DNA from: a virus
Lineage: Duplodnaviria > Caudoviricetes
Virus record (IMG/VR): IMGVR_UViG_3300032233_002657
Coordinates: 1-64,000 of that record
Reading direction: 5' to 3' (one strand)
Length of the DNA stretch: 64,000 bases
The translations under genes were made by a program, and so were the position numbers. How positions within the stretch are numbered: position 1 is the stretch's first letter; each line of letters begins with the position of its first letter. Shown piece by piece: positions 3,686 through 55,031 of the stretch. The notes beneath the pieces were generated by a model. It was not told the DNA's origin. It saw nothing but the letters and a program-made list of their open reading frames with translations, and ran no database searches.

Positions 3686-4737
3686 TTCTTATCCTTACGC
3701 AGAGATAGTATGGTCTTGCCTTTTCGCTTAGTCAGGTGAACTTTGTTCTTATCAGAGCTGCAATCGTATATAGAGCTAATCTCTTCAAACTCTTTAATCA
3801 TCTCTGGGTTTATGCCACCTACTATGTTGTCTGTATGAAAACAGATAATAGAGCATATACCTTTTGATGATGTGTGAGCTTTGCATCTCTTTAAACAGAG
3901 CAAAGCTTCTTTCATTCTACCTAACCTAGCTATGCACTTCTTACGCTTAATAGGAGCTGGGCTGAACCCATGGTTAATATCGTCAATTATGGCTAACTCC
4001 ACAGGCCTATACCTGCTCTCGTTTACTATGATGCTATTAAAGCCATCTTTGGTGCGAAGCGTATCCACCCATTTATCTGGAGTGTACCTTACATAGTGCT
4101 TGTTAAGCTTCTTGTAGTAAGTCTTAATGCTGAAGTGAAGGCAGTTAGTAAGAGCGATAGCAGCTCTATCAATGATGTAAGGTATGATTAAGTCTAGCTC
4201 TTCCCTAGTTCCAAACACGACCATCGGCTCAGAAGATAGTATAGACTCGCTAGCCGTTATATCGAACTTGTTTATTCTCTTAGACTTAGTAGATGAGAAT
4301 ATGCTTCCAGCCACAGTAGCGCCAGGTATCTCTATGGTGTTGGTGTACTTGTGATTAGGGTCTTTCTTAAACTTTACCAGACCGTCCACAAGGTATGCGG
4401 ATATCTGCATGCAAGCCTTAGGTACTAGAAAACGCTCTAAAGGAGTAGCTTCAGCCAAGTTGCTAACATCTTCCTTGAGCTTAAGTATAGCTTTGTCAGA
4501 AGCCCCTATGTCTCTTGCCTTAGCTTCTATGTCCTGTATAGCTCTAGCCCTGAGCATGTGAGAAAGCCTGAGGGCGTCCATGAAGTAGGCCTGGCTTGAT
4601 CCCTTAGAGATAGGACTTTTAAAGGTCTTGGTGTCTTTTATGTTCATTGCTTTAAACCTCTTGCTCCTTGTTATATTGTTTGATTCGTTCACGGCCCCAC
4701 TCGAAATCAGCACGATTATCGGCCTTAAGCCTTTCAT
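3682..4737 (-). CDS. hypothetical protein (true start may be the internal MNIKD)
   Basis: long ORF; N-terminus overlaps upstream gene. Confidence 0.7.
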   Translation of the reverse strand: MKGLRPIIVLISSGAVNESNNITRSKRFKAMNIKDTKTFKSPISKGSSQAYFMDALRLSHMLRARAIQDIEAKARDIGASDKAILKLKEDVSNLAEATPLERFLVPKACMQISAYLVDGLVKFKKDPNHKYTNTIEIPGATVAGSIFSSTKSKRINKFDITASESILSSEPMVVFGTREELDLIIPYIIDRAAIALTNCLHFSIKTYYKKLNKHYVRYTPDKWVDTLRTKDGFNSIIVNESRYRPVELAIIDDINHGFSPAPIKRKKCIARLGRMKEALLCLKRCKAHTSSKGICSIICFHTDNIVGGINPEMIKEFEEISSIYDCSSDKNKVHLTKRKGKTILSLRKDKK

Positions 4738-4966
4738 TAATTCTAGTTGCGGTTTTCAACGATAGAATTTTGCTAGCTAAAGTGTTTCGCAAAGCTTTCA
4801 GCTTAGCTTTAACTTCCTTCAACTCGTCTTTTAGCTTCTTCATCTCAGCCTTGCCACGGGCTGTAAGGTTCAAGCTTCGGGTATAGCATAGATTACATAA
4901 GTCTTTATATCCATACATCTTAACAACTTGCTTACCGCATTTAACGCAGGTAATGGAAGCTCTCAT
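4652..4966 (-). CDS. small Zn-ribbon/coiled-coil protein
   Basis: CVKC...CNLC followed by heptad-like helix; ATGA coupling. Confidence 0.6.
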   Translation of the reverse strand: MRASITCVKCGKQVVKMYGYKDLCNLCYTRSLNLTARGKAEMKKLKDELKEVKAKLKALRNTLASKILSLKTATRINERLKADNRADFEWGRERIKQYNKEQEV

Positions 4967-40294: not shown

Positions 40295-41764
40295 TTAGCC
40301 GTACAAGTTTATACAGAAATAATTGCCACCAGGCCCGTAATTAGATTCTTTAGCTAATACTTCTTTAGAGGCAACTCCTGTATCTATAGCTTGCTGTGCA
40401 ATCTTTACTGAAGAGGATCTATTATCTTTAATAAAATCTTTTATAGTTTTAACTAATTTGTTATTTATATGACACCTACCGGGTATTTTTATAGAAAACA
40501 CTTTAGTGCACCCTACTGCAAGCTTTGTTTTACCAGCCATTCTGTTTTTATTAACCTCGTCTACAGCATCTAGAATGGGCATAAATGAGTCGTATTCTAT
40601 TTCATCTTCTCTATGAGCTATGCTCACTTCAAAAGGTAGCCGCATTATTTTATCATCACATATATCTGCGGCTGCTTTAATTATCTCTCCTATTCTGTAA
40701 GCCTGACTTTTATCCTTAAGCTTAACTTCTCTCAAGGTTACGCAAGCATCCCCGCATTTTAAAAGTTTAAAGTTTTTGCCCGTAGATGTAACGTCAAGAT
40801 TTTCGCTGGAGGCGAACAGCTTTCGTACTGTCCTATTGGTAAGTGCTTCAAAAGTAGCTTGATCTATGTCTTCTGTAGTAATATATATGTCTAAACCCAG
40901 GTCACATCCTTTACTTATGAAGAAAGCATTTAGCAGATCAGGGGGCACTGCGTTAACGGCTTCATCTGTAAACATGCTGGATGATGTAGGCGTAGGTGCT
41001 TCAAACAGCTCGTCTAGATAGCTTAGCACTTCAAGTACTTTGCTTTTTGTTTTGTCATTATCGTCGCTTCCAAAACTTACTGACATTAAAGCTTTATATC
41101 CTTTTAAAGCTTCTGTAGTTGCATCTATAGCGATTAGAGAAGACAGCACTAAAGTCTGAGCTATTACTTTGGCGCTTACTAGCGGGTATGCTTCTACAGC
41201 TTTTACAATTTCAATTGTAGTCACATACTGCCCAGTTGTTCTATCTACATCACCTCTGCCAGAGAACGCGTATACTCCTGCATAGTCTATGGACCGTAAT
41301 AGCTTAGTGCTTGTAAGCTTAAGATAATCATGCTTTACTATTGAACTTCCGTTACGCCATTCTACTTTTCCTTTGAATTCATTGAACGCGTCTTCAATTA
41401 GCTCTATTTCCTTATCGGTTGCTTTTGAAAAAGCACACATAGGTATCTCTAGTCCAGACACAGTTTTAGACTTTAAAAGTTCAACTATATCTTCTACCTT
41501 AAGAGCTAGTCCACCAACATTTAAAGAGTCTACCTGTAGCGTGGCTAAATCTTTTCCAATACCGTTGTATACTTCGCAATTAAACATTGCTATGTAAGAA
41601 GCTTTTCTAACAGAAAGAAGAGCTATACTAAACGGATGAATAGTCTTCAGTTTTGAAAAACAGAGAGTATCACACCCTACATAGCTCTTAACGTTTTTTA
41701 CGTTAAGATGCTCTATCGCTCCTGGGTTTACTTTTTTACCTGTCCAGACATTTAATACGCTCAT
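40295..41764 (-). CDS. hypothetical protein
   Basis: 489-aa ORF, GGAGG RBS. Confidence 0.75.
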   Translation of the reverse strand: MSVLNVWTGKKVNPGAIEHLNVKNVKSYVGCDTLCFSKLKTIHPFSIALLSVRKASYIAMFNCEVYNGIGKDLATLQVDSLNVGGLALKVEDIVELLKSKTVSGLEIPMCAFSKATDKEIELIEDAFNEFKGKVEWRNGSSIVKHDYLKLTSTKLLRSIDYAGVYAFSGRGDVDRTTGQYVTTIEIVKAVEAYPLVSAKVIAQTLVLSSLIAIDATTEALKGYKALMSVSFGSDDNDKTKSKVLEVLSYLDELFEAPTPTSSSMFTDEAVNAVPPDLLNAFFISKGCDLGLDIYITTEDIDQATFEALTNRTVRKLFASSENLDVTSTGKNFKLLKCGDACVTLREVKLKDKSQAYRIGEIIKAAADICDDKIMRLPFEVSIAHREDEIEYDSFMPILDAVDEVNKNRMAGKTKLAVGCTKVFSIKIPGRCHINNKLVKTIKDFIKDNRSSSVKIAQQAIDTGVASKEVLAKESNYGPGGNYFCINLYG

Positions 41765-41774
41765 CGTAAACCTC

Positions 41775-41969
41775 CTATTCTGCTGATTTAAACTTGTCGT
41801 TAAGTGACTTAACGATAGTCTCTAACCGATCCACTGCTTCTAGTTCTGAGCCGTCTTTGCACCGTACTTCAACAGTGAAGTTAAAGCCTTTAGTGTTTTT
41901 AGCCACCTCAATCTTTGATGGCAGTGACGCTATAGTGTTTAAATATAATTCTTTTTCTTTAATATCCAT
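41775..41969 (-). CDS. hypothetical protein
   Basis: GGGAG RBS. Confidence 0.55.
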   Translation of the reverse strand: MDIKEKELYLNTIASLPSKIEVAKNTKGFNFTVEVRCKDGSELEAVDRLETIVKSLNDKFKSAE

Positions 41970-42449
41970 TTATTTACTCCCTTTGTTTTGATTGTTTTCT
42001 AAAGTTCTGAAATGCGCTTTCCATAAAGACTGGCTAGCGCAGGTGTTAACGTTATTCTGCTCGCCTGGCAAAGGACCAAAGTCTATTTTCTTCTTTGTGT
42101 TCATATGGTTGATGATTATCAGGCTCTCCCTACTAACCTGCCTAACCAAGTCGTTATCATCTGCTAACCCTTCAAGCAGATCTTCTACGTACTCTTTACC
42201 AAGCCTTCGAGCTATAACGCATCCTGCTGCTTTGATTCTAAAGTCTGAAGACTTTAACGCTTGGTCTACAATTGCTGTTGTATTGTTGACCAGCATCGAA
42301 TTGATGATACCTCGCATATAGTATATGTCTTCTGCCGTAATCGGTTTTACAGCCACACTGGCCGCGTTCTGCGCAACGGTTCCTCAACCCGCTTTAGCGC
42401 TGTTTACGTACACAGTGATACAAACTATTAGACCTATGATGTATTTCAT
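41970..42449 (-). CDS. secreted HEAT-like repeat protein with in-frame TGA at codon 22
   Basis: AAGGAG+ATG at 42449, signal peptide ending AKA, then G-TGA-G in frame with the 128-aa ORF (LLEGLADDNDLVRQVSRESL HEAT-like). Confidence 0.6.
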
Positions 42450-42547
42450 AATTGCTCCTTTAAAAAGTGATACCCAATAACCCACCTACTACACATCGTA
42501 AACAATAGGTGATCTCGTGGTTACTGGGTACCTTAGCTGTGTCAAAC

Positions 42548-42978
42548 TGCCCTAGCCCAACACAGCCTAGCCGTGCCTGCCATTCCGCGCCGATCCAGGC
42601 CCGACCATTCCATGCCTCCCCGCGCCCCGCCTGCCTCGCCACGCCTCGACTCGCCTCAACGGACCACGCCTCGCCTGCCGTGCGGGACCGGGCCCCGCCA
42701 AACCGCGCCTAGCCTGCCGTGCCGCGCCTCGACTAGCCTCGCCCGACCTAACCTCGTCACGCCAAGCCTTGCCCAGCCGAGCCTGCCAAGCCGATCGCAG
42801 CCGGACCGCGCCACGCCTCGCCTGCCATGCCTCGCCCCGCCCCGAGCTGCCTCGTCAGACCCCGCCGCGCCACGCCTCGCCTGCCACGCCTAGCCCTGCT
42901 CCGCGCTGCCCCGTCAGGACCCGCCACGCCTGCCTCGCCACGCCTCGACCGGCCTCGCCGGACCACGCCTTACCTGCC
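42548..42978 (-). ncRNA. pentamer array A: about 9 units of GGCA+(GGY-NN)n, putative guide-RNA array
   Basis: GGCAGGY separators at + coords 42575, 42629, 42673, 42712, 42781, 42820, 42879, 42928, 42972; intervals 54, 44, 39, 69, 39, 59, 49, 44 (all 5n+4). Repeat is certain; RNA function is inferred. Confidence 0.8.
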
Positions 42979-43098
42979 TTGTTGCTATCAATATAAATAA
43001 ACGGCTAAACCAACCCGCACAGTCGTAATGTTATGAACTATGGCAGCGCCTGCATAAATTACCCGTAGCCGAACAGCTGGTTTAGCCGAATGCTCATT

Positions 43099-43602
43099 TT
43101 ACAATATTGCTCTCATTTTATTAAGCATTTCAGATAGCTCTTCGTATTTAGAGTAAGTTGCTATAAGAGTTCTAATTCTGTCTAGCAACTGCTCTTTATG
43201 CTTGTTGTCAAGAGCGGGAGTCTTAGCGACTTCAATAGTAGGGTAGTAAGCCGACCCGTCTACTGAATTATGCACGTTTACAAAAGCTCTATATTTAACT
43301 TGAGTAGACACTTTAGAGTCAGGGTTATCTACCCTAGCAACTAAGCGCACTATGTTTAAAATCCTAGCAGCTTCTATTAAGTTTAACTTGTATTGCGCTA
43401 GATCTTTATCCCTAGTGAACAAACTATAGAATGTGTCGCTAGGTTCGCTGCTGTACTCTAATAGTGCCTCTGGAGTAAGCCTACCTCCGTTTTTATCTCT
43501 TATATCTATAACGGCTTCGTAAGCTTCTTTAGCCGTTACCCCAGGTATTTCTCTGCCTTTTCTGTACTCAAACCCTACGCTTTCCTTCTTCTTTTTTGCC
43601 AT
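43099..43602 (-). CDS. accessory protein between the RAMP-like gene and array A
   Basis: 167 aa, AGGAG RBS; GRLTPEALL...RAFVNV. Confidence 0.75.
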   Translation of the reverse strand: MAKKKKESVGFEYRKGREIPGVTAKEAYEAVIDIRDKNGGRLTPEALLEYSSEPSDTFYSLFTRDKDLAQYKLNLIEAARILNIVRLVARVDNPDSKVSTQVKYRAFVNVHNSVDGSAYYPTIEVAKTPALDNKHKEQLLDRIRTLIATYSKYEELSEMLNKMRAIL

Positions 43603-43634
43603 TTAGCTACTCCTGTGTAATTACCCTAGTAAAA

Positions 43635-44384
43635 TTACTCCCATGAGAACTCGTTTACTACTAAGTAGGTTCCATGGCTTCCACCTTTTTCAGGCCTCCA
43701 TTCACCGATACCAACGGTTTGCCCACTGTGGCTAATAAGTTGCGCCATCTGCTCAGCAGTGATATGGGCTGGGTTAAACCTTACAGAAAACTTAATGCCC
43801 CACTTCTTGAACTCAGGCCTGTGACGAAGATCAGGCTTGCCTAGCATGATTCTTACACGGTCCTGCCTCATAACCGGCCCAACTTTATTTGGGTGGTAAA
43901 CTGGTGTAAGTTCTCCGCCTTCTTCATCGTTTAGGATAAAGAACATCTGGCGAGCCACAGGGCGGCTTAGCTTAGGGTTGTTAGAGGTTAACGCTGAGAT
44001 AGCGGCAGCTTTTAGAGCAAGCAGAGGAAATCCAGGCCGACCGTCTTCGAGACGATAGAATGCGTTATTATATTCTTCTTCTGGATCTTTATCTTTTCTA
44101 GGGGCTGCACCCTTAGCTGCTTTTGTCTTTGATGGCTGCATTGATTCTAGCATCTGCTGCCTGCTCTTTTCTCCGAAGTTGTTTACAAGTAGAGGCGTTG
44201 TGCCTTCTACCGTGAACTCAAGCGTGTGCAGAGTTACTGGAGCGAACGTAAAGTTTACTGGTACAATTTTGCTAGCGCTATCTAACGTAGTAGCTGCAGC
44301 CTCTCCGCTCATATTAACTGCTTCTTTAATTTTACGAGCCTTCTTCATGAATTCTTTAGTAGTTTCGCGTTTGATAGTAGCCAT
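43635..44384 (-). CDS. stand-alone Cas7/RAMP-like RNA-binding protein
   Basis: N-terminal strand LEFTVEGTTPLLV, PGFPLLALKAA, RHRPEF..W, C-terminal Gly-rich loop VGIGEWRPEKGGSHGTY; start set at MATIK after GGAG. Confidence 0.75.
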   Translation of the reverse strand: MATIKRETTKEFMKKARKIKEAVNMSGEAAATTLDSASKIVPVNFTFAPVTLHTLEFTVEGTTPLLVNNFGEKSRQQMLESMQPSKTKAAKGAAPRKDKDPEEEYNNAFYRLEDGRPGFPLLALKAAAISALTSNNPKLSRPVARQMFFILNDEEGGELTPVYHPNKVGPVMRQDRVRIMLGKPDLRHRPEFKKWGIKFSVRFNPAHITAEQMAQLISHSGQTVGIGEWRPEKGGSHGTYLVVNEFSWE

Positions 44385-44441
44385 AGAATCATTCTCCGTG
44401 AATTGATAAATTAGATAAGCCAACGCTACATTGCGCTGACC

Positions 44442-44525
44442 TTAAGCCGCTTTTATTTTTTTTCTATTACCCGTCTTTATTTTGATACTCTTCTTTATTT
44501 TTTTCTTTACTTTAACCTTTGGCAT
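44442..44525 (-). CDS. 27-aa Lys-rich microprotein
   Basis: AGGAGGAG RBS; MPKVKVKKKIKKSIKIKTGNRKKIKAA. Confidence 0.5.
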   Translation of the reverse strand: MPKVKVKKKIKKSIKIKTGNRKKIKAA

Positions 44526-44557
44526 ATTCTCCTCCTTGAGTTTAGAGACGTCTCCAC

Positions 44558-44740
44558 TTACCACTTAGAAGAGCTCGTCATTCCTGACCTCCATTCCCAG
44601 CTGCAGCCGCCCCAAAATGGGTTGCTCCAGCAGTAAGATGGCGCGTAGTAATCCATCATGTCTGTAAACCAAAGCTCTGAGCTGCCCCTATCTTCCTGCC
44701 ATCCTTGTGATCTATCGCTATCACATACTTTTCTAATCAT
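44558..44740 (-). CDS. Trp/Ser-rich MIR-family microprotein
   Basis: MIRKVC...; ATGA coupling. Confidence 0.65.
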   Translation of the reverse strand: MIRKVCDSDRSQGWQEDRGSSELWFTDMMDYYAPSYCWSNPFWGGCSWEWRSGMTSSSKW

Positions 44741-44937
44741 CGTTGATTATCCTCCAAGCTCCAAGAATCCGAACAGACCACATCTATACTCCAGGAGTCG
44801 GACCAAAACCAGACACTGATCCAGAGGCTGGACCAAGGCAATTGCCTGGACCTAGACCAATGCCGGTTTAGAGGCCAAGACTGGGAGAGGGGTCTATCTC
44901 CGCGCTTGGTAGCAGGTAGACATTTCATTATCATCAT
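44737..44937 (-). CDS. Trp/Ser-rich microprotein (MMIMK variant)
   Basis: AGGAG RBS; SW repeats. Confidence 0.6.
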   Translation of the reverse strand: MMIMKCLPATKRGDRPLSQSWPLNRHWSRSRQLPWSSLWISVWFWSDSWSIDVVCSDSWSLEDNQR

Positions 44938-44946
44938 CGTATTCTC

Positions 44947-45150
44947 CTATTCATCGTTGACGCCCCTACTCCAACACTTAGACCAAGTTTTAGATATAGA
45001 CCAAACACCTGACTTATCTTGGTCTTGGCATCTACTGCTATACCAAGACCCAGAGTCGATCATATTCCAATGCCATAGCCAAGTATAAGGCCAAGGCTTG
45101 TTCCAGTTAGTGGACCAACATTTAGATGTGGGCCACGCTTTTCTTATCAT
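44947..45150 (-). CDS. Trp/Ser-rich MIR-family microprotein
   Basis: MIRKAWPTSK; ATGA coupling. Confidence 0.65.
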   Translation of the reverse strand: MIRKAWPTSKCWSTNWNKPWPYTWLWHWNMIDSGSWYSSRCQDQDKSGVWSISKTWSKCWSRGVNDE

Positions 45151-45332
45151 AGTCTGCTCCCCCAACACCTAGACCCAAGCTCATCTTCAGCCCAGTTAAC
45201 AGACCAAACTAAAGATTTAATTTGAGACCTACTTACAGTAGTGTTATTAGACCAGGACGAAGACTCGTCAAGCCAGGAACAGCGGCTAGAATCAGTCCAA
45301 GACCTAGAAGCAGGCCATGCTTTTCTTATCAT
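45147..45332 (-). CDS. Trp/Ser-rich MIR-family microprotein
   Basis: MIRKAWPASR; ATGA coupling. Confidence 0.65.
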   Translation of the reverse strand: MIRKAWPASRSWTDSSRCSWLDESSSWSNNTTVSRSQIKSLVWSVNWAEDELGSRCWGSRL

Positions 45333-45484
45333 TTATTACTCCAGTCTCGATTTGTAGCCCAACACATAGACCAGAGATCTTCTAGGCTCCAAGACAAGCC
45401 ATAGACATAAGACCTAAGATTGGAACTCCAACTTTCGCCTTTAGACCAAGAGCGACACTTAGGAAATATAAATCTTCTTATCAT
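45329..45484 (-). CDS. Trp/Ser-rich MIR-family microprotein (51 aa, not in ORF track)
   Basis: MIRRFIFPKCRSWSKGESWS...; ATGA overlap at both ends. Confidence 0.65.
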   Translation of the reverse strand: MIRRFIFPKCRSWSKGESWSSNLRSYVYGLSWSLEDLWSMCWATNRDWSNK

Positions 45485-45669
45485 ATATCTTCCCCCCATA
45501 ACTCCGAGTAGGTTCCATCAGTTTTCCAAAGCCCACTCCAGCACCAATCCAGTATCCAACACGCTGCATGGCGCGGCCAAGGCGTATATCTTCTTTCGCT
45601 CCAAGATACTTCTTGATCTCTAGCCCAACACAGGGAGCGCCCCTCTGTTGTCACCGGTCTTCTTATCAT
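45481..45669 (-). CDS. Trp/Ser-rich MIR-family microprotein
   Basis: MIRRPVTT; ATGA overlap at both ends. Confidence 0.65.
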   Translation of the reverse strand: MIRRPVTTEGRSLCWARDQEVSWSERRYTPWPRHAACWILDWCWSGLWKTDGTYSELWGEDI

Positions 45670-45866
45670 ATTTGATGCCTCCAAGACCTGGAGTCAAACC
45701 TTCCTCTAATCCAACTCAAAGACTTACGCCAAGAGTTAGTCCAAGACCTAGCCACACCATAGGGCAAACTCCAATCCTGGGAGCAAATTACAGAGGACAA
45801 CAACTCAGACTCAGACCAAGATTCAAGCCAAGAACCAGACCTACCGCATAATGTTCTTCTTATCAT
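45666..45866 (-). CDS. Trp/Ser-rich MIR-family microprotein
   Basis: MIRRTLCG; ATGA overlap at both ends. Confidence 0.65.
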   Translation of the reverse strand: MIRRTLCGRSGSWLESWSESELLSSVICSQDWSLPYGVARSWTNSWRKSLSWIRGRFDSRSWRHQI

Positions 45867-46021
45867 ATGTCTGTTCTCCAAGACCTAGACCAAGGCCAGA
45901 CCCATCCAAAGCGCCACGCGCTGTTCCAAGACCAAGATTTAAAATTACAGCCGTAGGTGAATCTGGCATATGTTTGAGCACTTACCCAAGACTTAGATCC
46001 TGGCATTTTGTTTCTTATCAT
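45863..46021 (-). CDS. Trp/Ser-rich MIR-family microprotein (52 aa, not in ORF track)
   Basis: MIRNKMPGSKSW...WPWSRSWRTDI. Confidence 0.65.
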   Translation of the reverse strand: MIRNKMPGSKSWVSAQTYARFTYGCNFKSWSWNSAWRFGWVWPWSRSWRTDI

Positions 46022-46245
46022 TCTCCGCTCCTCGTCTTTATAGATCCTCTAATCCCCTTTGACCAAGAATAGCTTGAGTTCCTACCCAGTTCTGATATGG
46101 ATAGATACTCAGCTCCTTTCCAGGCCCTATTAAATCTCATTCTTCCCGCCCATTCGCAGGACCTAAACCAACCACTCGAACACGAGAAAGTAGGGCCTAG
46201 AATTGGGTTGTTAAAAGGCTTTCCCGCCTTATTGTGCATTCTCAT
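46018..46245 (-). CDS. Trp/Ser-rich microprotein (MRMH variant)
   Basis: TAATG overlap with upstream gene, ATGA with downstream gene. Confidence 0.55.
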   Translation of the reverse strand: MRMHNKAGKPFNNPILGPTFSCSSGWFRSCEWAGRMRFNRAWKGAEYLSISELGRNSSYSWSKGIRGSIKTRSGE

Positions 46246-46562
46246 TACGCGTCTAATGGCGCAAAGCACCATCGTGGTTGGTAAATAATCTCTACCGCCC
46301 CGAGGGAGATAATCACAGAAGATCCAATCGGATCCTCGGTGTTAGGGGTCTCCTGGCTAGAGGCGCCAGAAGTCTCGACAGCGCGCGCCTGCGCAAGCAC
46401 TAAGCAATCTTCCCCCACGTGAGATAGAATCCCACGGTAGTTGTACCGCGCACATAACACCGCTACTGGCTGCCCAAGAAACTGCTGTGCCACTTGCGCC
46501 ATGCTAGCTGCAGCTGTGCCATCTATTTCAACTAAACTAACTTTGCTTTTAACCTTAGCCAT
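46245..46562 (-). CDS. small beta-barrel (Sm/LSm-like) protein
   Basis: FLGQPVAVLCARYNYRGILSHVGEDCLVL...ISLGAVE; AAGGAG RBS. Confidence 0.55.
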   Translation of the reverse strand: MAKVKSKVSLVEIDGTAAASMAQVAQQFLGQPVAVLCARYNYRGILSHVGEDCLVLAQARAVETSGASSQETPNTEDPIGSSVIISLGAVEIIYQPRWCFAPLDA

Positions 46563-46587
46563 AATTCCAACTCCTTGAATGTGATTC

Positions 46588-46623
46588 AAACAAAAAAGGG
46601 GCAGCAGAACATCTGCTACCCCC
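46588..46623 (-). terminator. intrinsic terminator
   Basis: GGGGTAGCAGA/TCTGCTGCCCC + TTTTTTGTTT. Confidence 0.75.
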
Positions 46624-46648
46624 GTAAGCTAAACTTGTCTATATAATT

Positions 46649-46906
46649 TTAATTACCTAGAGTCCACCCTCTTCTGCCGGCGTTTTCCCAATCCCAAGAC
46701 ATATGTATTCCATCTGAATCATTTGACCAATTCCATGACCAGATCTGTTCAGGCGAGGACCAGCTGTTGGAGAACATCCAACTGCAGTTAGGCCAAGAGA
46801 ATGAGGTATGTGATCCGTAGAATGTATCTCTAACTTGTGAAACGTTATAACTGGAGCTGGATAAGCTCCAGTTATACGAGTTTCCAAATAGCGAGCGCCT
46901 TATCAT
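46649..46906 (-). CDS. Trp/Ser-rich MIR-family microprotein
   Basis: MIRRSLFGNSYNWS. Confidence 0.65.
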   Translation of the reverse strand: MIRRSLFGNSYNWSLSSSSYNVSQVRDTFYGSHTSFSWPNCSWMFSNSWSSPEQIWSWNWSNDSDGIHMSWDWENAGRRGWTLGN

Positions 46907-46908
46907 TA

Positions 46909-47235
46909 CTAGTCCGCTACCTTTCGCTCTTTCTCAGCGGCTAGCGGATCATACTCCCGCTGACGTGTCACGCACACCCACGATCCCTTAGGGAGCGTAA
47001 TATTTGAGTGCTCGTCATGACCCACGACAGTCTCTTCGGCAGAGAAGAGATAGATATCACCCTTCTCATCTACAAAAGAAGCTACTTCATTTGCAGAAGT
47101 GATCTGATGTGAATGCCCGGTGACTTCACCGAACGCCAAGATTTTGCTGCCTAGCGGCTTTAGCTTATCTAAGCCCGCTGGCTTCTTAACAACCCTAAAG
47201 AAAATATCACCCTGACGCGCTTGAAACTTCTTCAT
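46909..47235 (-). CDS. conserved His-motif protein typically paired with DUF6745
   Basis: RQGD, LAFGEVTGHSH, HDEH, RQREYDP. Confidence 0.7.
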   Translation of the reverse strand: MKKFQARQGDIFFRVVKKPAGLDKLKPLGSKILAFGEVTGHSHQITSANEVASFVDEKGDIYLFSAEETVVGHDEHSNITLPKGSWVCVTRQREYDPLAAEKERKVAD

Positions 47236-47257
47236 AACTAATTCCTTTGATTAAAAC

Positions 47258-47854
47258 TTAAGATTCTTGTGAAGGAGCATACTTATCTGCCTTCATATAG
47301 TTTGTCCAGGCCACCGCCTCTACACATGTTTTCATGTTTGGAGGCACGCACAGAAAGTAATTTTTAAAACTACCATCTGGCTCCGCCGTAGAGTTAACCA
47401 CCTTAACATACAAGGTGGGTTCTTCAAAGATTTTTGGAATCTCGAAGAGGACTCTTTCCCTGCCGAACTGATCTACGTCTCTATGCACTATACGTGTTGT
47501 AGGCATAGTCATGATTTTGTCTAGCCCAACTATCTTCATCCCAACGTATTTTACTTCTGAGTTAGGATGTCTTAACACCTCCTCTACCGTTACATCTTCC
47601 GGCTTTGTGAAGAAGTGAGGAGGAATACGCACCCCCTCGTAATAGTACAGAATACTGCCGAACTTGTCGGCGTCCATTCCGTGCTGCTTGCCGTTTTTGT
47701 ACCACATGATACGCGTGGGGCTAACATACGCTGGACCCGTGTCACAGTGCAGTCGCCCGTCTTCGTTTAATATGCGCTTAACAGGCCCGAAGCTAAACTC
47801 TCCGTTAAAGAACTTGAGTCGCGCCACCCAAGCTTCATACCCTTTATTTTTCAT
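47258..47854 (-). CDS. DUF6745-like protein
   Basis: RLHCDTGPA, YYEGVRIP, VVNSTAEPDG, YFLCVPP, AVAWT. Confidence 0.65.
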   Translation of the reverse strand: MKNKGYEAWVARLKFFNGEFSFGPVKRILNEDGRLHCDTGPAYVSPTRIMWYKNGKQHGMDADKFGSILYYYEGVRIPPHFFTKPEDVTVEEVLRHPNSEVKYVGMKIVGLDKIMTMPTTRIVHRDVDQFGRERVLFEIPKIFEEPTLYVKVVNSTAEPDGSFKNYFLCVPPNMKTCVEAVAWTNYMKADKYAPSQES

Positions 47855-47855
47855 A

Positions 47856-48053
47856 CTACCTCCTTAATTTCCAATTACAACTAGCAGAACAATCATCTTC
47901 CCAGCCGCCAGACCTATACCAGCTTTGTGAATGGGAAGTTGACTGAGACCTTGGCGATGACGGCCTTCCCCATGTTGCTATATGGAGTACAGCCCAAGAT
48001 GCATTAGAAGCACCAAACCAACTAGCCGGCATTGTTGCTGTTCTTCTAATCAT
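47856..48053 (-). CDS. Trp/Ser-rich MIR-family microprotein
   Basis: MIRRTATM. Confidence 0.65.
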   Translation of the reverse strand: MIRRTATMPASWFGASNASWAVLHIATWGRPSSPRSQSTSHSQSWYRSGGWEDDCSASCNWKLRR

Positions 48054-48214
48054 TCAAGCTCCATAAAATTTTCTGAAAACGCCCAGTTATTTACCCAGCT
48101 CCAAGAGAAGCATCCAGCAAAAATATTGGATACTCCCCAAAAATCTGATGCTGCTCTTGATGCGCTTCGCCCACAAGACCAGGATTGAGACATATGCATA
48201 CGGGATCTAAGCAC
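48050..48214 (-). CDS. Trp/Ser-rich microprotein (MLRSR variant, 54 aa, not in ORF track)
   Basis: GGAGG RBS + GTG; SQSWSC...FSWSWVNNW; ATGA coupling. Confidence 0.55.
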   Translation of the reverse strand: MLRSRMHMSQSWSCGRSASRAASDFWGVSNIFAGCFSWSWVNNWAFSENFMELE

Positions 48215-48449
48215 TATCCACCTCCGATAGTTTAATAACTTTAATTCCGATCTTAGGCCCTATCACTTGGCTTCTCTCAAAGATGCGACTTGTGTCAGGA
48301 ACATCTTCGTTCATAAGAACGAAAAGGTTTCCTCTTTTCTCAAACATCTGCCCTGTTATAGGAGCTATCCATGACCCACCTTCCTTTAGGTAAGTGAATA
48401 CTTTCTTTAACCATTGTATGTCTGTTACGCTAGGTTTCCATTCAACCAC
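48207..48449 (-). CDS. hypothetical protein
   Basis: AGGAGG RBS + GTG. Confidence 0.65.
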   Translation of the reverse strand: MVEWKPSVTDIQWLKKVFTYLKEGGSWIAPITGQMFEKRGNLFVLMNEDVPDTSRIFERSQVIGPKIGIKVIKLSEVDSA

Positions 48450-48491
48450 GAGGTCCTCCTTTAGACTGCCTATAGTAGGCTCGTAACGAGT

Positions 48492-48623
48492 TTAAAAAAA
48501 CCAACCATTTGCCCAGCCTCTACTCCATCTCCAGTCATCAGCCCAAGACACAGAGTAAGAATAAGGCTCAGACCAAGCTTTGGAGACGTCTCTAATTAAG
48601 TATGCTTTGCGTCTTCTTATCAT
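48492..48623 (-). CDS. Trp/Ser-rich MIR-family microprotein (43 aa, ends in a T7 run)
   Basis: MIRRRKAYL...GWANGWFF; TAATG overlap. Confidence 0.55.
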   Translation of the reverse strand: MIRRRKAYLIRDVSKAWSEPYSYSVSWADDWRWSRGWANGWFF

Positions 48624-48802
48624 TAAGCACCTCTCAAAATCCTATTTAAAAACCAACCTAGTGACCAATTTCTACTCCATTGAATCCAATTTGTTAAAGA
48701 CACAGAGTAAGAACAACCATGAGACCAGGACAAAGAGTAAACCCAAGGATCAGACCATGATTTAGATGAATCAAGTGGGTGTATTTTTCTTCTTATCATC
48801 AT
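48623..48802 (-). CDS. Trp/Ser-rich MIR-family microprotein
   Basis: MMIRRKIHP. Confidence 0.65.
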   Translation of the reverse strand: MMIRRKIHPLDSSKSWSDPWVYSLSWSHGCSYSVSLTNWIQWSRNWSLGWFLNRILRGA

Positions 48803-48996
48803 GGACCAACTCTCCGAGGTTTTAATATAGACCAAGGCAAGCGATTGAAGTGAGCCCAAGCACACGCAATACCCTTATACTTGTGTCCAGATATGGTCGT
48901 GTTTTCTGACCAGAGCCTATTTATCTTTTTGTCCTTAGTCCAACAAACAGACATTTTACTTTGATGCAATGGATACAAAAGTTTTCTTATCATCAT
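48799..48996 (-). CDS. MIR-family microprotein
   Basis: MMIRKLLYP; paralogue of next ORF. Confidence 0.65.
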   Translation of the reverse strand: MMIRKLLYPLHQSKMSVCWTKDKKINRLWSENTTISGHKYKGIACAWAHFNRLPWSILKPRRVGP

Positions 48997-49181
48997 GAAC
49001 TGACCCTCCAAGACTTGAACTTAGACCAAGGAAAGAACAGGAAATTGGAACAGGTCCCCCTAAGGATATGCCCGGAAAAGATCTTATTTTTGTCCCAAAG
49101 GCTATTTATCCTGATTTTTTCGGACCAGCACTTGGACATTTTTCTATCGCTATGTATAGCGTATACAAGTTTTCTTATCAT
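48993..49181 (-). CDS. MIR-family microprotein
   Basis: MIRKLVYA; AGGAG RBS. Confidence 0.65.
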   Translation of the reverse strand: MIRKLVYAIHSDRKMSKCWSEKIRINSLWDKNKIFSGHILRGTCSNFLFFPWSKFKSWRVSS

Positions 49182-49182
49182 G

Positions 49183-49386
49183 TTAACTCCTTACGGACCC
49201 TGAAAATCTATTGCACCATGCAGAAGAAGATATGGTTAAACCAGACCATAATGCTCCTCTAGAGCCGCGCCACAGTTTTGTAGTAGAGCGTACTTTAAGC
49301 TCTGTAAACGAATTACTACTCGTTCCTTCTTCGTTCCATGCACGACTATACCCGTGGGCCATAGTGTTTCCTGTTCTTGGGATCAT
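49183..49386 (-). CDS. Trp/Ser-rich microprotein (MIPR variant)
   Basis: AGGAG RBS. Confidence 0.6.
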   Translation of the reverse strand: MIPRTGNTMAHGYSRAWNEEGTSSNSFTELKVRSTTKLWRGSRGALWSGLTISSSAWCNRFSGSVRS

Positions 49387-49403
49387 TGGTTCTCCTAGTT
49401 AGG

Positions 49404-49601
49404 TTATCTGTGTATAGACCACGATAGAGACCTGAAAGCAGTAAAGAAATGACTATCCTGCCCTCCAATCCTGGATCTAGAGTATTTAGCCATGATGGAC
49501 GCTACCCCACCCGTTGTGTACACGAAAGCTCTATACTTAGAGCTGTAAGTTCTGGCTATTCCCCAAGAGTATGATCCAGGTGTGTTTATTTTTCTGATCA
49601 T
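49404..49601 (-). CDS. MIR-family microprotein
   Basis: MIRKINTPG. Confidence 0.62.
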   Translation of the reverse strand: MIRKINTPGSYSWGIARTYSSKYRAFVYTTGGVASIMAKYSRSRIGGQDSHFFTAFRSLSWSIHR

Positions 49602-49605
49602 TTGT

Positions 49606-49773
49606 TTACAGCCCCCAACTATTAGGCGCCCAACTGTTAGTCCGTGTGTGCCGCCACTCAGAGGATAGAGCCCAACACCTGGACCAAGAAAACGATTTAG
49701 CCGAAGACCTGGTCCAGTGCCCAGAGCCAGGCCAATCCCAAACAGGATAGTTATTGTTAGTTTTTCTTATCAT
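49606..49773 (-). CDS. Trp/Ser-rich MIR-family microprotein
   Basis: MIRKTNNN; TGATG overlap. Confidence 0.65.
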   Translation of the reverse strand: MIRKTNNNYPVWDWPGSGHWTRSSAKSFSWSRCWALSSEWRHTRTNSWAPNSWGL

Positions 49774-49976
49774 CAAATGTTTCTCCAATAATTTAAACTC
49801 CACCCTCCTGAGCTAAAACTATTGCACCAGCTGCCTATACCTAACCAAGGAGATGACATACAATGCTGCCACCCCCAGTTCCATGAACGATTTACAAAGT
49901 AGTAGTTCGCTGAGAATGATGTAGGTCTTATATTATTCCAGCACTTTGATTCATGGGTTCTTATTTTTCTTATCAT
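49773..49976 (-). CDS. Trp/Ser-rich MIR-family microprotein
   Basis: MIRKIRTHESKCW; ATGA coupling. Confidence 0.65.
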   Translation of the reverse strand: MIRKIRTHESKCWNNIRPTSFSANYYFVNRSWNWGWQHCMSSPWLGIGSWCNSFSSGGWSLNYWRNI

Positions 49977-50236
49977 AGTTTTTCCCTTACTCTTAGCATG
50001 TCTTCTTCAGTAGCCATGATGCTGTACACCATAGGCTCATCTTTAAAAGACCACCACCCTCTATCTTCATCTAGCTCGTTGCCCACTCTAAATACGAACT
50101 CATAGTGGCATCCGTTAACTACGATGGATGACGGCCATATGTCTTTGTCGCCTATTCTTATTAGGCGGTTTGTTAAGAAGATAGTAAGCATTTGTTCTAG
50201 GGATTTGCCTACTACCCACTGGTTAAAATCATCCAT
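49973..50236 (-). CDS. hypothetical protein
   Basis: ORF track, start adjusted to MDDFNQW. Confidence 0.6.
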   Translation of the reverse strand: MDDFNQWVVGKSLEQMLTIFLTNRLIRIGDKDIWPSSIVVNGCHYEFVFRVGNELDEDRGWWSFKDEPMVYSIMATEEDMLRVREKL

Positions 50237-50405
50237 GCTTGTGCGCAATGCTGTTAGGCTCGCAGTATGTACAACATCGGGGAGGCGTACCGTCTACGCG
50301 CAGAGGCGTAGTTCCTTCTATTTTAAATACCATTGTAAAAAGTTTTTGTTTTTTATCCTTTTTAATCTTAGCCCTTACTTTAGAGTCGGTTAGTGTATTT
50401 TTCAT
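50229..50405 (-). CDS. 58-aa ORF carrying a copy of the RAMP N-terminal motif (FKIEGTTPLRV)
   Basis: AAGGAG RBS; manual translation. Confidence 0.55.
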   Translation of the reverse strand: MKNTLTDSKVRAKIKKDKKQKLFTMVFKIEGTTPLRVDGTPPRCCTYCEPNSIAHKHG

Positions 50406-50490
50406 TTTGTCTCCTTTAAATAAAATAAGCCCCAGCTTTTTAGGGCTGAGGCTTAGGGCCGTTAACTCTGTACCTGCCTAGAAAACAGAG

Positions 50491-50655
50491 TTAAGGCTTT
50501 TCGGGTGGATTGCACCTGGCACAATTGATGTAGTCAGGTACTTCTTTTAGTTTATTCACACTCGTATCATTTACGAATGCGTGGTTACATGACGGCGTAA
50601 CCAAGTACTTGTTGAATTTTAACAGCTCTATATGCTTGACTTTTACCCTGCGCAT
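50491..50655 (-). CDS. 54-aa possible Zn-ribbon protein
   Basis: CNH...CARC; manual translation. Confidence 0.45.
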   Translation of the reverse strand: MRRVKVKHIELLKFNKYLVTPSCNHAFVNDTSVNKLKEVPDYINCARCNPPEKP

Positions 50656-50667
50656 TTTAACCTATCC

Positions 50668-50874
50668 TTACCGGACTAGGCTAGCAAGGTCGTATGCCCT
50701 TAGCAACCTGTCCGGACGCTTGTACCTTTGTTCATACAGCATCCTGACCCTTTCACACCAATCTTCGTTTAAGAATTGGTCGTTAGAGAAACGTTTATTA
50801 AATAGCTTCGAAGCCATTCTTCTACTACTTAATATTATAATCCTTTGCGCTTTACTCTGCCTGCTTTTTTTCAT
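50668..50874 (-). CDS. basic hypothetical protein
   Basis: ORF track. Confidence 0.55.
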   Translation of the reverse strand: MKKSRQSKAQRIIILSSRRMASKLFNKRFSNDQFLNEDWCERVRMLYEQRYKRPDRLLRAYDLASLVR

Positions 50875-50875
50875 A

Positions 50876-51235
50876 TTAATTCTTCTGCGTTAGAGCTGCT
50901 TTGCTAGACTCAAGCTGGTTCAGCTCTTCTTTGAGCGTTGTTATTTTATTCTTCAGCTCTTCAGCTATTTTGTCTACGTTAGCTAGTATTTCTAGCATTA
51001 CGTCTGCTTGATGCTTAGACAGCTTAGCTGTTTGAATCATCAATGAGTGCAGCTCTCCAGGGAGCCTTACTGAGCCTTGCCTACCTATCATCAAGCCATA
51101 TGGAAAATCGTTCTGAGCGACATTCCAATCTAGCACTACCGCACATGATCTTAGCTCTGGAATCTTTTCTAATAGACTCAAGATTTTTTCGCTCAGGGCG
51201 TCTGTAACTTCTAGATGTCTAAGCTTCTCCGTCAT
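50876..51235 (-). CDS. hypothetical coiled-coil protein
   Basis: AGGAG RBS. Confidence 0.65.
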   Translation of the reverse strand: MTEKLRHLEVTDALSEKILSLLEKIPELRSCAVVLDWNVAQNDFPYGLMIGRQGSVRLPGELHSLMIQTAKLSKHQADVMLEILANVDKIAEELKNKITTLKEELNQLESSKAALTQKN

Positions 51236-51554
51236 CTTTTCTCCTCAGTGCTAGTTCGATGTGGTACTCCATAGCTCTGGCGGCTAAGGCTGTGGGGACT
51301 AAGAGTACAAACTCGTAATTCCTAAAGCAACACAAAAATGATAGCCAGAAACATACATGATAACCTAAACAAAACCTACAGGTCATTAGGTCGCCTATGA
51401 GTGATACACCTTTTCGGTCTGAGTATTTCCAAACCTCTGTATGCGCTCTAGCCGTAGCAAATACACTGCCTTCGAACCATGCGTCTAATGCAGCCTTGCT
51501 TGCTAAAGCTACTACTACAACCGCCAAAAACACATCGCCCATTTCGTATTCCAT
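51219..51554 (-). CDS. DUF1360-like membrane protein
   Basis: GDLMTCRFCLGYHV, hydrophobic helices; start at MEYEM after AGGAGG. Confidence 0.6.
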   Translation of the reverse strand: MEYEMGDVFLAVVVVALASKAALDAWFEGSVFATARAHTEVWKYSDRKGVSLIGDLMTCRFCLGYHVCFWLSFLCCFRNYEFVLLVPTALAARAMEYHIELALRRKDDGEA

Positions 51555-51584
51555 AACCAAGACCTCCTGTTTAAAGATTACTAA

Positions 51585-51840
51585 CCGTGCCTGCCTCGCC
51601 ACGCCTCGACTCGCCTCAACGGACCACGCCTGCCGAGCCGTTTCGTGCCGTTTCGCGTCAAACCCCGCCCCGCCTTGCCTGCCTTGCCTATCCGTGCCTC
51701 GCCGGGCCTGGCCATGCCTGCCAAGTCCGTGCCTTGCGCCACCGCGACCCGCCGGGCCTGCCGCGCCTCGCCTTGCCCGCCCTCACCCCGCCTCGCCTGC
51801 CGCGCTTTTCCCAGCCGCACCATAACGAGCCGCGCCTTAC
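51585..51840 (-). ncRNA. pentamer array B1 (about 6 units), downstream of tRNA
   Basis: separators at 51589, 51628, 51677, 51716, 51756, 51795; intervals 39, 49, 39, 40, 39. Confidence 0.8.
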
Positions 51841-51854
51841 TTTTGAAACTATAT

Positions 51855-51926
51855 TGGGCCACCTCGGATTCGAACCAAGAACCAAGGAATTATGAGTTCC
51901 CTGCTCTGCCTTTGAGCTAGTGGCCC
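51855..51926 (-). tRNA. tRNA with CAU anticodon, probably tRNA-Ile2 (lysidine type); no encoded CCA
   Basis: GGGCCAC/GTGGCCC acceptor stem, CTCATAA loop, TTCGAATC T-loop; C4/C5 as in TilS substrates. Confidence 0.88.
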
Positions 51927-51934
51927 TATGAGTT

Positions 51935-52537
51935 GCCTGCCTCGCCAGCCCTCGCCCCGCCTGGCCACACCGCGCCTGCCAAGCCACGCCATGACTCGCC
52001 GCGACGTGTCTAACCTAGCCTGCCTCGCCAGCCCTCGCCCGCCCTTGCCATACCGAGCCTGCCGTGCCACGTCTCACCTATTCTTGCCCCGACATGCCTG
52101 CCGCGCCTCTCCCGAACAGGCCGCGCCTCACCTAGCCTGCCGCTCCTCGCCGCGCCTCACCTCACCTAGCCGTGCCTGCCATGTCCCGCCTGGTCAGGCC
52201 TCGCCCCGCCTAGCCTGCCTTGCCTAGACCTGCCCCTCCATGCTGTGCCCCGCCTAGCCTGCCTCGCGTTACCATGCCGCTCCATTACAAACCCGGCCGT
52301 GCCTGCCATACCTCGCCGAGACAGACCTTGCCGAGCCGCACCGCGCCTGCCATGTCCCGCCATGTCGTGCCTAGCCTGCCGCGCCGAACCTCGGCTGACC
52401 TCGACTTACCGTGCCTGCCTCGCCTCGCCAGGCCCAGCCTTGCCTGACCGTGCCTGCCGCTCCTCACCACGCCTCGCCGAACCTCGCCCAGCCTAGCCTG
52501 CCTTGCCACGCTCTGCCTAGCCGGGCCGTACCTTGCC
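51935..52537 (-). ncRNA. pentamer array B2 (about 15 units), upstream of tRNA
   Basis: separators 51935...52496; 14 intervals: eight of 39, five of 44, one of 29 (all 5n+4). Confidence 0.82.
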
Positions 52538-52560
52538 TCAATTTAGCAAGTTACCTTGCC

Positions 52561-52884
52561 CTAATTTCTTCTACTCCTTTTCTTACTACGATAGCCCCTA
52601 CCGTTATATCGACCCTTTGAGTTTCTGATATAGGAGTCTTGAAGATGCCTGGAGAACTTTCCTGGAGTCCAGTAAGGTTTTCCAGCCTCCATGTTGCTAT
52701 CGGTCCGTAAGAACATGTAGCACAGAACTATACTAAATAACATAAAAACGAATGACTTCAATACGATAGAGGCCACAATGCCTCCGGCAATAATCCAAAA
52801 GGATATTGTTGTATTGTCATCGTTTGCCGTATATTGTTTGTAGCTCATTTTATATAATCCCGAAGGGCCACTCACGTGATACAC
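52561..52884 (-). CDS. small membrane protein (likely start MSYKQ, 52848)
   Basis: hydrophobic hairpin, basic tail. Confidence 0.6.
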   Translation of the reverse strand: MYHVSGPSGLYKMSYKQYTANDDNTTISFWIIAGGIVASIVLKSFVFMLFSIVLCYMFLRTDSNMEAGKPYWTPGKFSRHLQDSYIRNSKGRYNGRGYRSKKRSRRN

Positions 52885-53059
52885 CTCTGTCCGGAGGAAT
52901 GTCTCCCTCGTTAGGGCGATTATGCTCCGGGGGATAAGGAGGTTTAAGGGGATATCTTATAGAAGCCAGATTACCAATGGCCATGCGGCTAGAGGGCAGT
53001 CTTTGAGTGTTTATTAATCCACTACGCTCTAAGAATCTTCTTGGTGATCGGCTAGCCAT
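52850..53059 (-). CDS. hypothetical protein
   Basis: AAGGGGG RBS. Confidence 0.5.
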   Translation of the reverse strand: MASRSPRRFLERSGLINTQRLPSSRMAIGNLASIRYPLKPPYPPEHNRPNEGDIPPDRGVSREWPFGII

Positions 53060-53222
53060 AGTAACCCCCTTAAACTAACGAAATAGGCATCAGAATGCAG
53101 CGTAACCAATTATGATCAGCAAAGCTACAACACAAATTATAGCAACTGGTTCCATAGAATCGGCACTGCTACATTCACTTTCTCCATATTCGTCTTCGCA
53201 CCTATCCGAGATTTTGTAAAAC

Positions 53223-55031
53223 ATGATAAATACCCCTAATCAAACGTCCAGCGCTTCTTCTAATCAAAAGGCCTTAAACGAAGTTATAACACGTATAAAG
53301 AAAGGCTCGTTTCCAAACCTCTCTTCGCTTCTACCGGCAATGCTAAACCTCGATGGAAAGCCCTATAGCCTTGAGAAACACTTTCAGTTTGAGCCTCTTT
53401 TCAATATTTATATGCCTAGACGAACCATATTGAAAACTGGTCGTCAGGTGGGTAAGAGCACGGTTATCTCTGCGCATGGAGTTATAACCTGCGCTACCGT
53501 TCCATACTTTCGAAACCTTTATATTACTCCTTTGTTTGAGCAGGTGCGCCGCCTGTCTAGTAATTACGTAAGACCCTTCATAGAGCAATCTCCGGTCAAA
53601 TCTATTTTAATTGGCCCTGAGACTGAGAACAGCGTGCTGCAAAGAAGCTTTCGCAACAACAGCATGATGCAGTTCTCATTTGCTCTACTCGACGCCGATA
53701 GAATTCGTGGTATACGAGCCGATCAGGTTATCATCGATGAAGTTCAGGATATGGATGGAGATCACATACCTGTTATTCGAGAAACCATGTCGGCCAGTGA
53801 ATGGGGTAACATGAAAATCGCAGGTACCCCTAAGACCTTAGATAACACCATAGAGCGAGAATGGTTGTCGTCATCTCAAGCTGAATGGTGTATAGTATGC
53901 AGAGCTTGCAAGTACACAAACGTCTCATCGGTTAATCATGACCTTATTCGCATGATTGGCCCTGTAAGGGCGGATATCTCAGAGCATAGCCCTGGAACCG
54001 TTTGTGCAAAATGTAGCAAGACTATTTACCCTAAAGATGGAAGATGGATTCATAAACATCCGGAGAGAAGACTCAATTACGCCGGATACCATATTCCTCA
54101 ACCAATAATGCATATTCATTACTCCAGACCAGATAAATGGGCGGAGCTGAATGCAAAGAGAGAAGGGATGGGAAACTATACACACGAAAGGTTCTTAAAC
54201 GAAGTCTTAGGAGAAAGCTCCGGAGCAGGCCTACAGCTCGTATCACTTCTTGAGCTGCAAGCTGCTTCTAATCCTGATCTTAAGAACAATCCGAGAGACC
54301 CATCTTCAAGCTGTAAGGATGAAATTCTTAAAAAGTACGCTCACCGAATACTTGCCGTTGACTGGGGTGGCGGTGGTGAGAAGGGCGTAAGCCTTACTGT
54401 ACTTGCTGTCATGGGCATTACCTCTACTGGTGTCATAGAGGTCCTGTGGTCTAAGCGCCTTCTCACCCCCCATGACCACATGGCTGAAGCTGCAGAGTGC
54501 CTTAAGATTCATCGCATGTTTAAATGCGAGTTTATAACTCATGACTTCTCTGGAGCGGGCGTAGTCCGAGAAACTGTTTTAGTTCAGTCGGGAATATCGC
54601 CTACTCAGCTGCTGCCTGTACAGTACGTAAGAGCAGCCAGCAAAGGTATGTTTACTTACATACCGTCAGCGCCAGCTCACCCCAGGGCTCATTACAGAGC
54701 TGATAAGACACGAAGCTTACTGACTACATGCTCAGCCATACGCACTAAGAAGCTTAGATTCTTTGCCTATGACTACGTTAGCTCAGAAGACCCAGGCCTT
54801 ATTCAAGACTTCCTAGCCTTGATTGAAAGCAAAGCCACTACAGCGGCTGGGTCTGACATATACACTATTCAGAGAAACCCAGCCTTATCCGACGACTTTG
54901 CTCAGTCGGTTAACATAGGCTGCTTGTGCCTGTGGCATATGACTGGAAGATGGCCTGACTTTAAAACAGATAGATACTCTGTAACTAGAGAGCAAGCTAT
55001 GGAAACCGGAATGGGCGGATGGAACACCTAG
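53223..55031 (+). CDS. terminase large subunit (gpA-like)
   Basis: KTGRQVGKS, IRGIRADQVIIDEVQD, AGTP, CxxC pairs, NEVLG, AVDWGGG nuclease motif. Confidence 0.85.
   Translation: MINTPNQTSSASSNQKALNEVITRIKKGSFPNLSSLLPAMLNLDGKPYSLEKHFQFEPLFNIYMPRRTILKTGRQVGKSTVISAHGVITCATVPYFRNLYITPLFEQVRRLSSNYVRPFIEQSPVKSILIGPETENSVLQRSFRNNSMMQFSFALLDADRIRGIRADQVIIDEVQDMDGDHIPVIRETMSASEWGNMKIAGTPKTLDNTIEREWLSSSQAEWCIVCRACKYTNVSSVNHDLIRMIGPVRADISEHSPGTVCAKCSKTIYPKDGRWIHKHPERRLNYAGYHIPQPIMHIHYSRPDKWAELNAKREGMGNYTHERFLNEVLGESSGAGLQLVSLLELQAASNPDLKNNPRDPSSSCKDEILKKYAHRILAVDWGGGGEKGVSLTVLAVMGITSTGVIEVLWSKRLLTPHDHMAEAAECLKIHRMFKCEFITHDFSGAGVVRETVLVQSGISPTQLLPVQYVRAASKGMFTYIPSAPAHPRAHYRADKTRSLLTTCSAIRTKKLRFFAYDYVSSEDPGLIQDFLALIESKATTAAGSDIYTIQRNPALSDDFAQSVNIGCLCLWHMTGRWPDFKTDRYSVTREQAMETGMGGWNT

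Follow-up and report, generated by a model that had tools for sequence, protein, structure and literature searches.

Three pentamer tracts in the genome of a large phage, read as probable staggered vrRNA arrays of a VIPR system with a fixed GGCAG junction between units

Three regularly punctuated pentamer tracts in a phage genome are, by our estimate with a probability of about 85%, staggered vrRNA arrays of a VIPR system whose guides are set apart by a step in register. The tracts were analysed in a window of 64,000 nucleotides (positions 1 to 64,000 of IMG/VR record IMGVR_UViG_3300032233_002657); they are G+C-rich, non-coding and carried on the minus strand, in a phage genome of ~181 kb that is otherwise ~40% G+C (Table 1). 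Systems of this kind were already published in April 2026, so the locus is another example, in which the VIPR guide code and its staggered form were rediscovered independently. As such it represents VIPR with 27 units, 26 of them of length 5n+4, in a large phage encoding an RNA polymerase of its own.

VIPR is a CRISPR-related silencing system of phages described in two preprints of 2026 (bioRxiv 10.64898/2026.04.26.720920 and 10.64898/2026.04.26.720927). According to these preprints, it combines the RAMP protein Vipr with vrRNAs of alternating GGY and NN, one protomer occupying each repeat; the NN bases pair with double-stranded DNA such that every third target base is skipped, and phages use the system against rival mobile elements, which are thereby silenced. 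The guide size given there is 9-16 repeats. In the staggered type of array the vrRNAs overlap by 1 nt (legend of fig. S18, 10.64898/2026.04.26.720920; also PMC13142463), and the main text of the same preprint reports confirmation by small-RNA sequencing for the ribozyme-interspersed and single-vrRNA forms only. We found no junction motif or statistics for staggered arrays in the accessible text of the VIPR preprints.

Table 1. Features of the locus, in window coordinates; (-) denotes the minus strand.
Feature	Position	Description
vrRNA array A	42985-42578 (-)	8 staggered units: 44, 49, 59, 39, 69, 39, 44, 54 nt
Trailer hairpin	42535..42567 (-)	immediately after the final array A unit; 14-bp stem (RNA fold)
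vap accessory gene	43602-43099 (-)	167 aa; follows vipr; homologues downstream of vipr elsewhere
vipr gene	44423-43635 (-)	262 aa; RAMP protein, from homology, predicted fold and conserved residues
vrRNA array B	51801-51591 (-)	5 units: 39, 40, 39, 49, 39 nt; remote from vipr
tRNA-Met (CAU)	51855..51926 (-)	between arrays C and B, same strand; ARAGORN; Rfam tRNA, 63 bits
vrRNA array C	52502-51937 (-)	14 staggered units of 29-44 nt, mostly 39 and 44

The grammar of the tracts is simple. When they are split after each GGCA that precedes GGY, every piece has the form (GGYNN)n + GGCA. At the junction GGCA|GGY the distance from GG to GG is 4 instead of 5; equivalently, the last pentamer of a unit, GGCAG, shares its G with the GGY that opens the next, and units are therefore spaced by 5n-1, which is the 5n+4 grammar. 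This rule is the published "staggered array, 1-nt overlap" architecture (fig. S18). The units abut directly, with no tail or ribozyme between them (an Rfam search of 41500-53500 found no ribozyme), and no long direct repeats were found in the arrays.

The intervals between separators were 54, 44, 39, 69, 39, 59, 49 and 44 in array A, 39, 49, 39, 40 and 39 in array B, and 39, 44, five times 39, 15+29, 44, 44, 29, 39, 39 and 44 in array C. The interval of 15 arises from a separator-like match at 52234, an in-phase GGGGC AGGTC that was rejected and not counted. Without this false separator 26 of the 27 intervals are 5n+4, the sole exception being 40; at least 26 of 28 intervals of this form, at p=0.2, has a binomial probability of 1.7e-16. 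A phase-aware HMM was applied to the window, with five phase states and all four phase shifts taken as equally probable beforehand; it called all 27 shifts as -1. GGCAGGY occurs on the minus strand 30 times in the three arrays and twice outside them, and three times on the plus strand. The whole pentamer/GGCA pattern was found at no place beyond the three arrays in the 181-kb virus record.

Within the pentamers, entropy was 0.32, 0.79 and 1.17 bits at positions 1-3 and 1.84 and 1.94 bits at positions 4-5. The autocorrelation of G in the arrays has peaks at lags 5, 10 and 15 and a further pair at 39 and 44; its value is ~0.48 for lag 5, ~0.53 for lag 39 and ~0.55 for lag 44, whereas neighbouring genes give ~0. 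An earlier, sequence-only reading of this DNA had described the grammar before any search was made: its series of array A intervals is reproduced exactly by the motif positions, its count of 26 in 27 with the exception of 40 is recovered once the in-phase look-alike is removed, and its division of the pentamer into three conserved and two variable positions is borne out by the position-wise entropy and the period-5 autocorrelation. The grammar of pentamers and GGCA is thereby confirmed as real and highly non-random. Two units (42881-42823 and 42930-42882 on the minus strand) and the second unit of locus L014 carry an irregular conserved core, GGTCTGACGAGGCAGCTCGGGGCGG and a variant of it, which departs from GGY/NN, keeps the 5-nt register and may be a small structured insert.

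Beside array A lie the two genes expected of such a system. The 262-aa product is a Vipr RAMP protein, as established from homology, fold and the conserved G-loop and thumb arginine. It was assigned to PHROG phrog_4652, shares 33% identity with gp52 of Mycobacterium phage Mattes (E 7e-27) and, locally only, matches the Vipr genes of SUSP1 and Felixounavirus over residues 199-247 (32.7% identity over 49 residues, tblastn). Its AF2 model (pLDDT 79.5) has Csm3/Cas7 subunits as best Foldseek matches (E 5e-5). When aligned with SUSP1 Vipr, the thumb Arg138, Trp178, Arg179 and the glycines of the G-loop are invariant and Asp177 is exchanged for Glu, such that the G-loop motif G-x-G-[D/E]WRP is kept between the two proteins. 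SUSP1 His17, which hydrogen-bonds G1 of the repeat, is present in nearly all homologues; the protein encoded in the window has Asn at this place.

The vap product has a weak homologue in Mattes gp53 (E 2e-5), and in 53 of 80 IMG/VR loci the gene immediately downstream of vipr is a homologue of vap. Its AF2 model scores a pLDDT of 89.6, and the winged-helix-like matches returned by Foldseek are weak (best E 0.055), so that a DNA-binding winged-helix fold is weakly suggested by the model. Pfam gave no match for Vipr or vap, and no cas families were found among the neighbouring genes.

The arrays travel with this protein in unrelated phages. The 80 IMG/VR loci were gathered with a protein profile of Vipr, and 75 of them have an array on the same strand as the Vipr homologue, in most cases right behind the second gene of the pair. 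When array A was used in a search for distantly related DNA, it matched intergenic DNA of cluster F mycobacteriophages; the same array, GGCNN...GGCA|GGC, separates gp51 from gp52 in phage Mattes. A Vipr homologue also lies beside pentamer arrays in the Gordonia phages ODay and UmaThurman, and beside GGTNN repeats in Felixounavirus wV8 and phage SUSP1.

Across the 75 IMG/VR loci, 588 of 621 phase shifts were -1, and ~81% of those read GGCAG; the junctions were counted as GGCAGGC (370), GGCAGGT (58), GGCAGTT (29) and GGCAGTC (12). The frequency of the -1 step and of GGCAG indicates that a fixed motif, as opposed to an arbitrary overlap, makes up the step. To the extent that the text of the VIPR preprints is accessible, these figures for the strictness of the step and for the motif are absent from it. 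Unit lengths in the 75 loci peak at 44-59 nt, and 102 of the 460 junction-bounded units (22%) measure 9-24 nt. Units this short are too small for guides when set against the published 9-16 repeats, and therefore not every GGCA step delimits a working vrRNA. An example from a sister phage is the 14-nt unit GGCGT GGTAC GGCA.

The sister phage, in which a flanking protein is 97% identical, has kept the leader and trailer of array A with a different set of units, all of them 5n+4; three of its units are common to array A and one to array C, and their order differs. Units are thus exchanged between arrays and between phages as cassettes with GGCA at their bounds, and the same guide adjoins different neighbours in different arrays. 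The length differences among related units are whole numbers of pentamers. Between related units of the window phage and its sister, substitutions were found at 36 of 166 positions in NN and 25 of 249 in GGY, but at none of the 44 in GGCA; NN had been expected from the sequence to vary more than GGY across relatives, and it does so (22% against 10%). The accompanying proposal that indels are tolerated only as whole pentamers fits the homologous pairs of units (39/44, 49/59, 44/69 and 29/39 nt), and stands on that footing for pairs that are few. It had also been suggested that GGCA marks a processing site or a filament boundary. We consider this well motivated: it matches the drawing in the published fig. 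S18 and agrees with the movement of cassettes, the shuffled neighbours, the invariant junction and the unpaired AG in the polymerase matches described below.

Five metatranscriptomes contain small parts of the window, and in the four examined the contigs cover the flanks of array A only, with no cover of the array A interior in metatranscriptome contigs. Two studies yielded contigs over the array A trailer that end at 42578 (+3), the last GGCA step; one runs into Illumina adapter. The stop is a weak hint of an RNA end, as contigs cannot prove ends and repeats break assemblies. The trailer itself is 90% identical in the sister phage, and the changes in the stem of its hairpin preserve pairing; the z-score of the whole folded stretch was not significant. 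The comparison with the sister phage covers the region of array A, because the sister contig stops where array B would begin: this 102-kb contig ends exactly at the array B edge (G001:C1:1-587 against window 50801-51387). Arrays probably break metagenome assemblies and would hence be under-represented in contig collections.

The remote arrays are split by a tRNA-Met (CAU), and the Rfam search of 41500-53500 returned nothing except this tRNA. A tRNA inside an array is absent in 60 other Vipr loci; in two loci (L039 and L052) a tRNA-Met (CAU) lies 0.7-1 kb downstream of the array. Cuts by RNase P/Z at the embedded tRNA-Met would free array ends.

A model of codon positions 1-2, read in sense orientation, describes the NN dinucleotides of the window better than a uniform model or five others. 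The guide GA GT CC GA GA GA GT GA is present in two exact copies, one in the unit at 42675 and one at 51630, in the unit that closes array B; variants occur at 42974 and in the sister phage. It spells EVP[DE][DE][DE]V[DE], the region of motif C in DNA polymerase A. When searched with its terminal AG, this guide had five exact skip-rule matches in IMG/VR, two of them at motif C of family A DNA polymerases, and Pfam confirmed the polymerase identity for two matches. When searched without AG, ~45 of the first 120 IMG/VR matches listed were the polymerase motif C site; a motif filter passed 48 of the 120 listed, among which L299, L330 and L282 are not clear (L282 being a truncated duplicate of L267/L310). 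Of the 45 polymerase matches, about 43 belong to one clade reading FALVHDSILAEVP[DE][DE]EV[DE], and AG follows none of them, which shows the constant AG to serve as punctuation and to carry no code. The nearest cultured relatives of the polymerases in this clade are T5-like, with 50% identity.

In prokaryote genomes, 21 of the 120 matches listed lie at the same Pol I site and the rest in unrelated acidic peptides; unrelated proteins commonly contain the acidic peptide that this guide encodes. The phage also has a family A DNA polymerase of its own, at 18379-19467 on the minus strand within a 1067-aa open frame, whose motif C reads EVPYECVEE and matches 13 of 16 guide positions (81% NN), at the line of 80% NN match used for target calling in the VIPR preprint. 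No self-target stands out, the best own-genome matches being no better than reversed-guide controls, and guides from the 75 other loci likewise matched the genome of the window phage no better than reversed controls. No second site was matched when the window guides were compared with the polymerase-bearing loci, and the guides at 42783 (13 NN), 42881 (11), 42631 (11) and 52020 (9) have no exact skip-rule match in IMG/VR. Judging by these matches, we give slightly better than even odds that polymerase motif C is the natural target class of this guide, and treat it as a lead only. It does provide a testable target, the DNA polymerase motif C region in a large clade of uncultured aquatic phages. 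The original description of the units as guides was right: they are vrRNAs of VIPR beside a Vipr gene, one unit of which decodes by the 1-nt skip rule to a polymerase motif.

These observations suggest how the locus might work. The arrays would be transcribed on the minus strand, and Vipr protomers would bind the RNA one per pentamer, holding GGY and exposing the two variable bases, in the binding mode of the preprints. The exposed NN would pair with double-stranded DNA, skipping every third target base by the rule given there, such that a unit of n pentamers could read ~3n bp of a gene of a rival element and lead to its silencing. A filament in 5-nt register would be unable to cross the -1 step, which would keep neighbouring guides apart and is probably the place at which the transcript is cut. 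To this scheme our analysis contributes the array grammar and how far it is conserved, the genes for Vipr and vap, and a single decoded class of targets.

We suspect, tentatively and at somewhat less than even odds, that the fixed GGCAG step is a dedicated signal for maturation and termination that replaces the 3' pseudoknot tail or the hammerhead of other VIPR types. The -1 step would stop one Vipr filament and start the next, exposing a single unpaired A for cleavage, so that a tail-less transcript could yield many guides, with the tRNA adding cuts by RNase P/Z within the remote array.

Other explanations for the junction and for the tracts must be weighed against this. The arrays could be VIPR arrays in which GGCAGGC is a growth scar, left by recombination or duplication at microhomology, with the ends of guides set otherwise. 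Such an origin would account for units being shuffled between arrays and phages exactly at the junctions, and for the frequency of 9-24-nt units in related loci. However, a scar would not keep 95% of shifts at -1, nor GGCAG in ~81%, across very distant phages; the 4-nt spacing is unreadable in the published 5-nt register, and the legend of fig. S18 in 10.64898/2026.04.26.720920 puts vrRNA boundaries there. We therefore regard a scar as unlikely.

It is far less probable that the tracts are RNA decoys, soaking up Vipr or another protein with a 5-nt register in the manner of TRAP, and not programmable guides. A sponge needs no hypervariable NN, whereas here NN is near maximal entropy and codon-like, and one unit gives exact matches to a polymerase motif in many genes of viruses; this outweighs the resemblance of the conserved triplet and 2-nt spacer to TRAP sites, the distance of 7-8 kb between vipr and arrays B and C, and the use of vrRNAs in decoy fashion that is reported for satellites. 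Least credible of all is an element acting at the DNA level, whether by forming a G-quadruplex or an R-loop, as an origin of replication, or for packaging in the vicinity of the terminase gene. The non-template strand is G-rich and terL is 700 bp away from arrays B and C, but array A is 9 kb from it, the arrays travel with the Vipr gene and not with terminase (75 loci and several named phages), and the literature shows Vipr binding GGY/NN RNA. A TRAP-like sponge, a G-quadruplex or R-loop, Chi-like sites and pac/ori were dropped as candidates when it emerged that a RAMP gene accompanies the arrays.

The staggered arrays of 10.64898/2026.04.26.720920 have in common with this locus a lone Vipr RAMP gene, vap, GGY/NN pentamers and the 1-nt overlap; the locus differs in its fixed GGCAG junction, in units of mostly 8-9 repeats and in a second, remote array split by a tRNA. 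With the Type II VIPR of Escherichia phage SUSP1 it shares a homologous Vipr ([D/E]WR G-loop, thumb Arg), the order vipr-vap and the pentamer code. The SUSP1 guides also target coding sequence, where the base they skip is the wobble base, a likeness that holds here for one guide family only. The vrRNAs of SUSP1 are separate ~100-nt transcripts with GGT-rich repeats and a 3' pseudoknot tail. Unlike those of SUSP1, the units in the window abut without a tail, GGC dominates and a hairpin is found only at the array end.

More remote likenesses exist outside VIPR. The class 1 CRISPR-Cas backbone, with Cas7/Csm3 on crRNA, resembles the proposed complex in its RAMP fold, its protein filament on a guide RNA and its periodic base flipping. 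In contrast to CRISPR-Cas, the period here is 5 and not 6, there is no repeat-spacer array, cas genes are lacking, pairing is non-contiguous and the system is phage-encoded. In the Bacillus trp leader RNA, TRAP sites are (G/U)AG triplets with spacers of 2-3 nt, whose 5-nt register comes from the protein oligomer. The likeness lies in the conserved triplet with a 2-nt spacer; unlike the TRAP case, no TRAP-like gene is present here, the spacers carry information, and the arrays are far longer and punctuated.

Looking forward, the Mycobacterium cluster F and Gordonia phages with the same staggered arrays offer an easy bench system. Complete VIPR loci are present in cultivable actinophages, namely Mattes and its relatives and UmaThurman, where the arrays are partly hidden by annotation. 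In Mattes and relatives the array (L010:1489-1741) appears in GenBank records as a protein gene or as a blank, and in DRBy19, BobaPhett and Philus it is annotated under 'hypothetical protein'. In UmaThurman (array L012:4611-4925), gp40 (4619-4942 of the locus) is annotated as a protein gene that lies wholly on the array.
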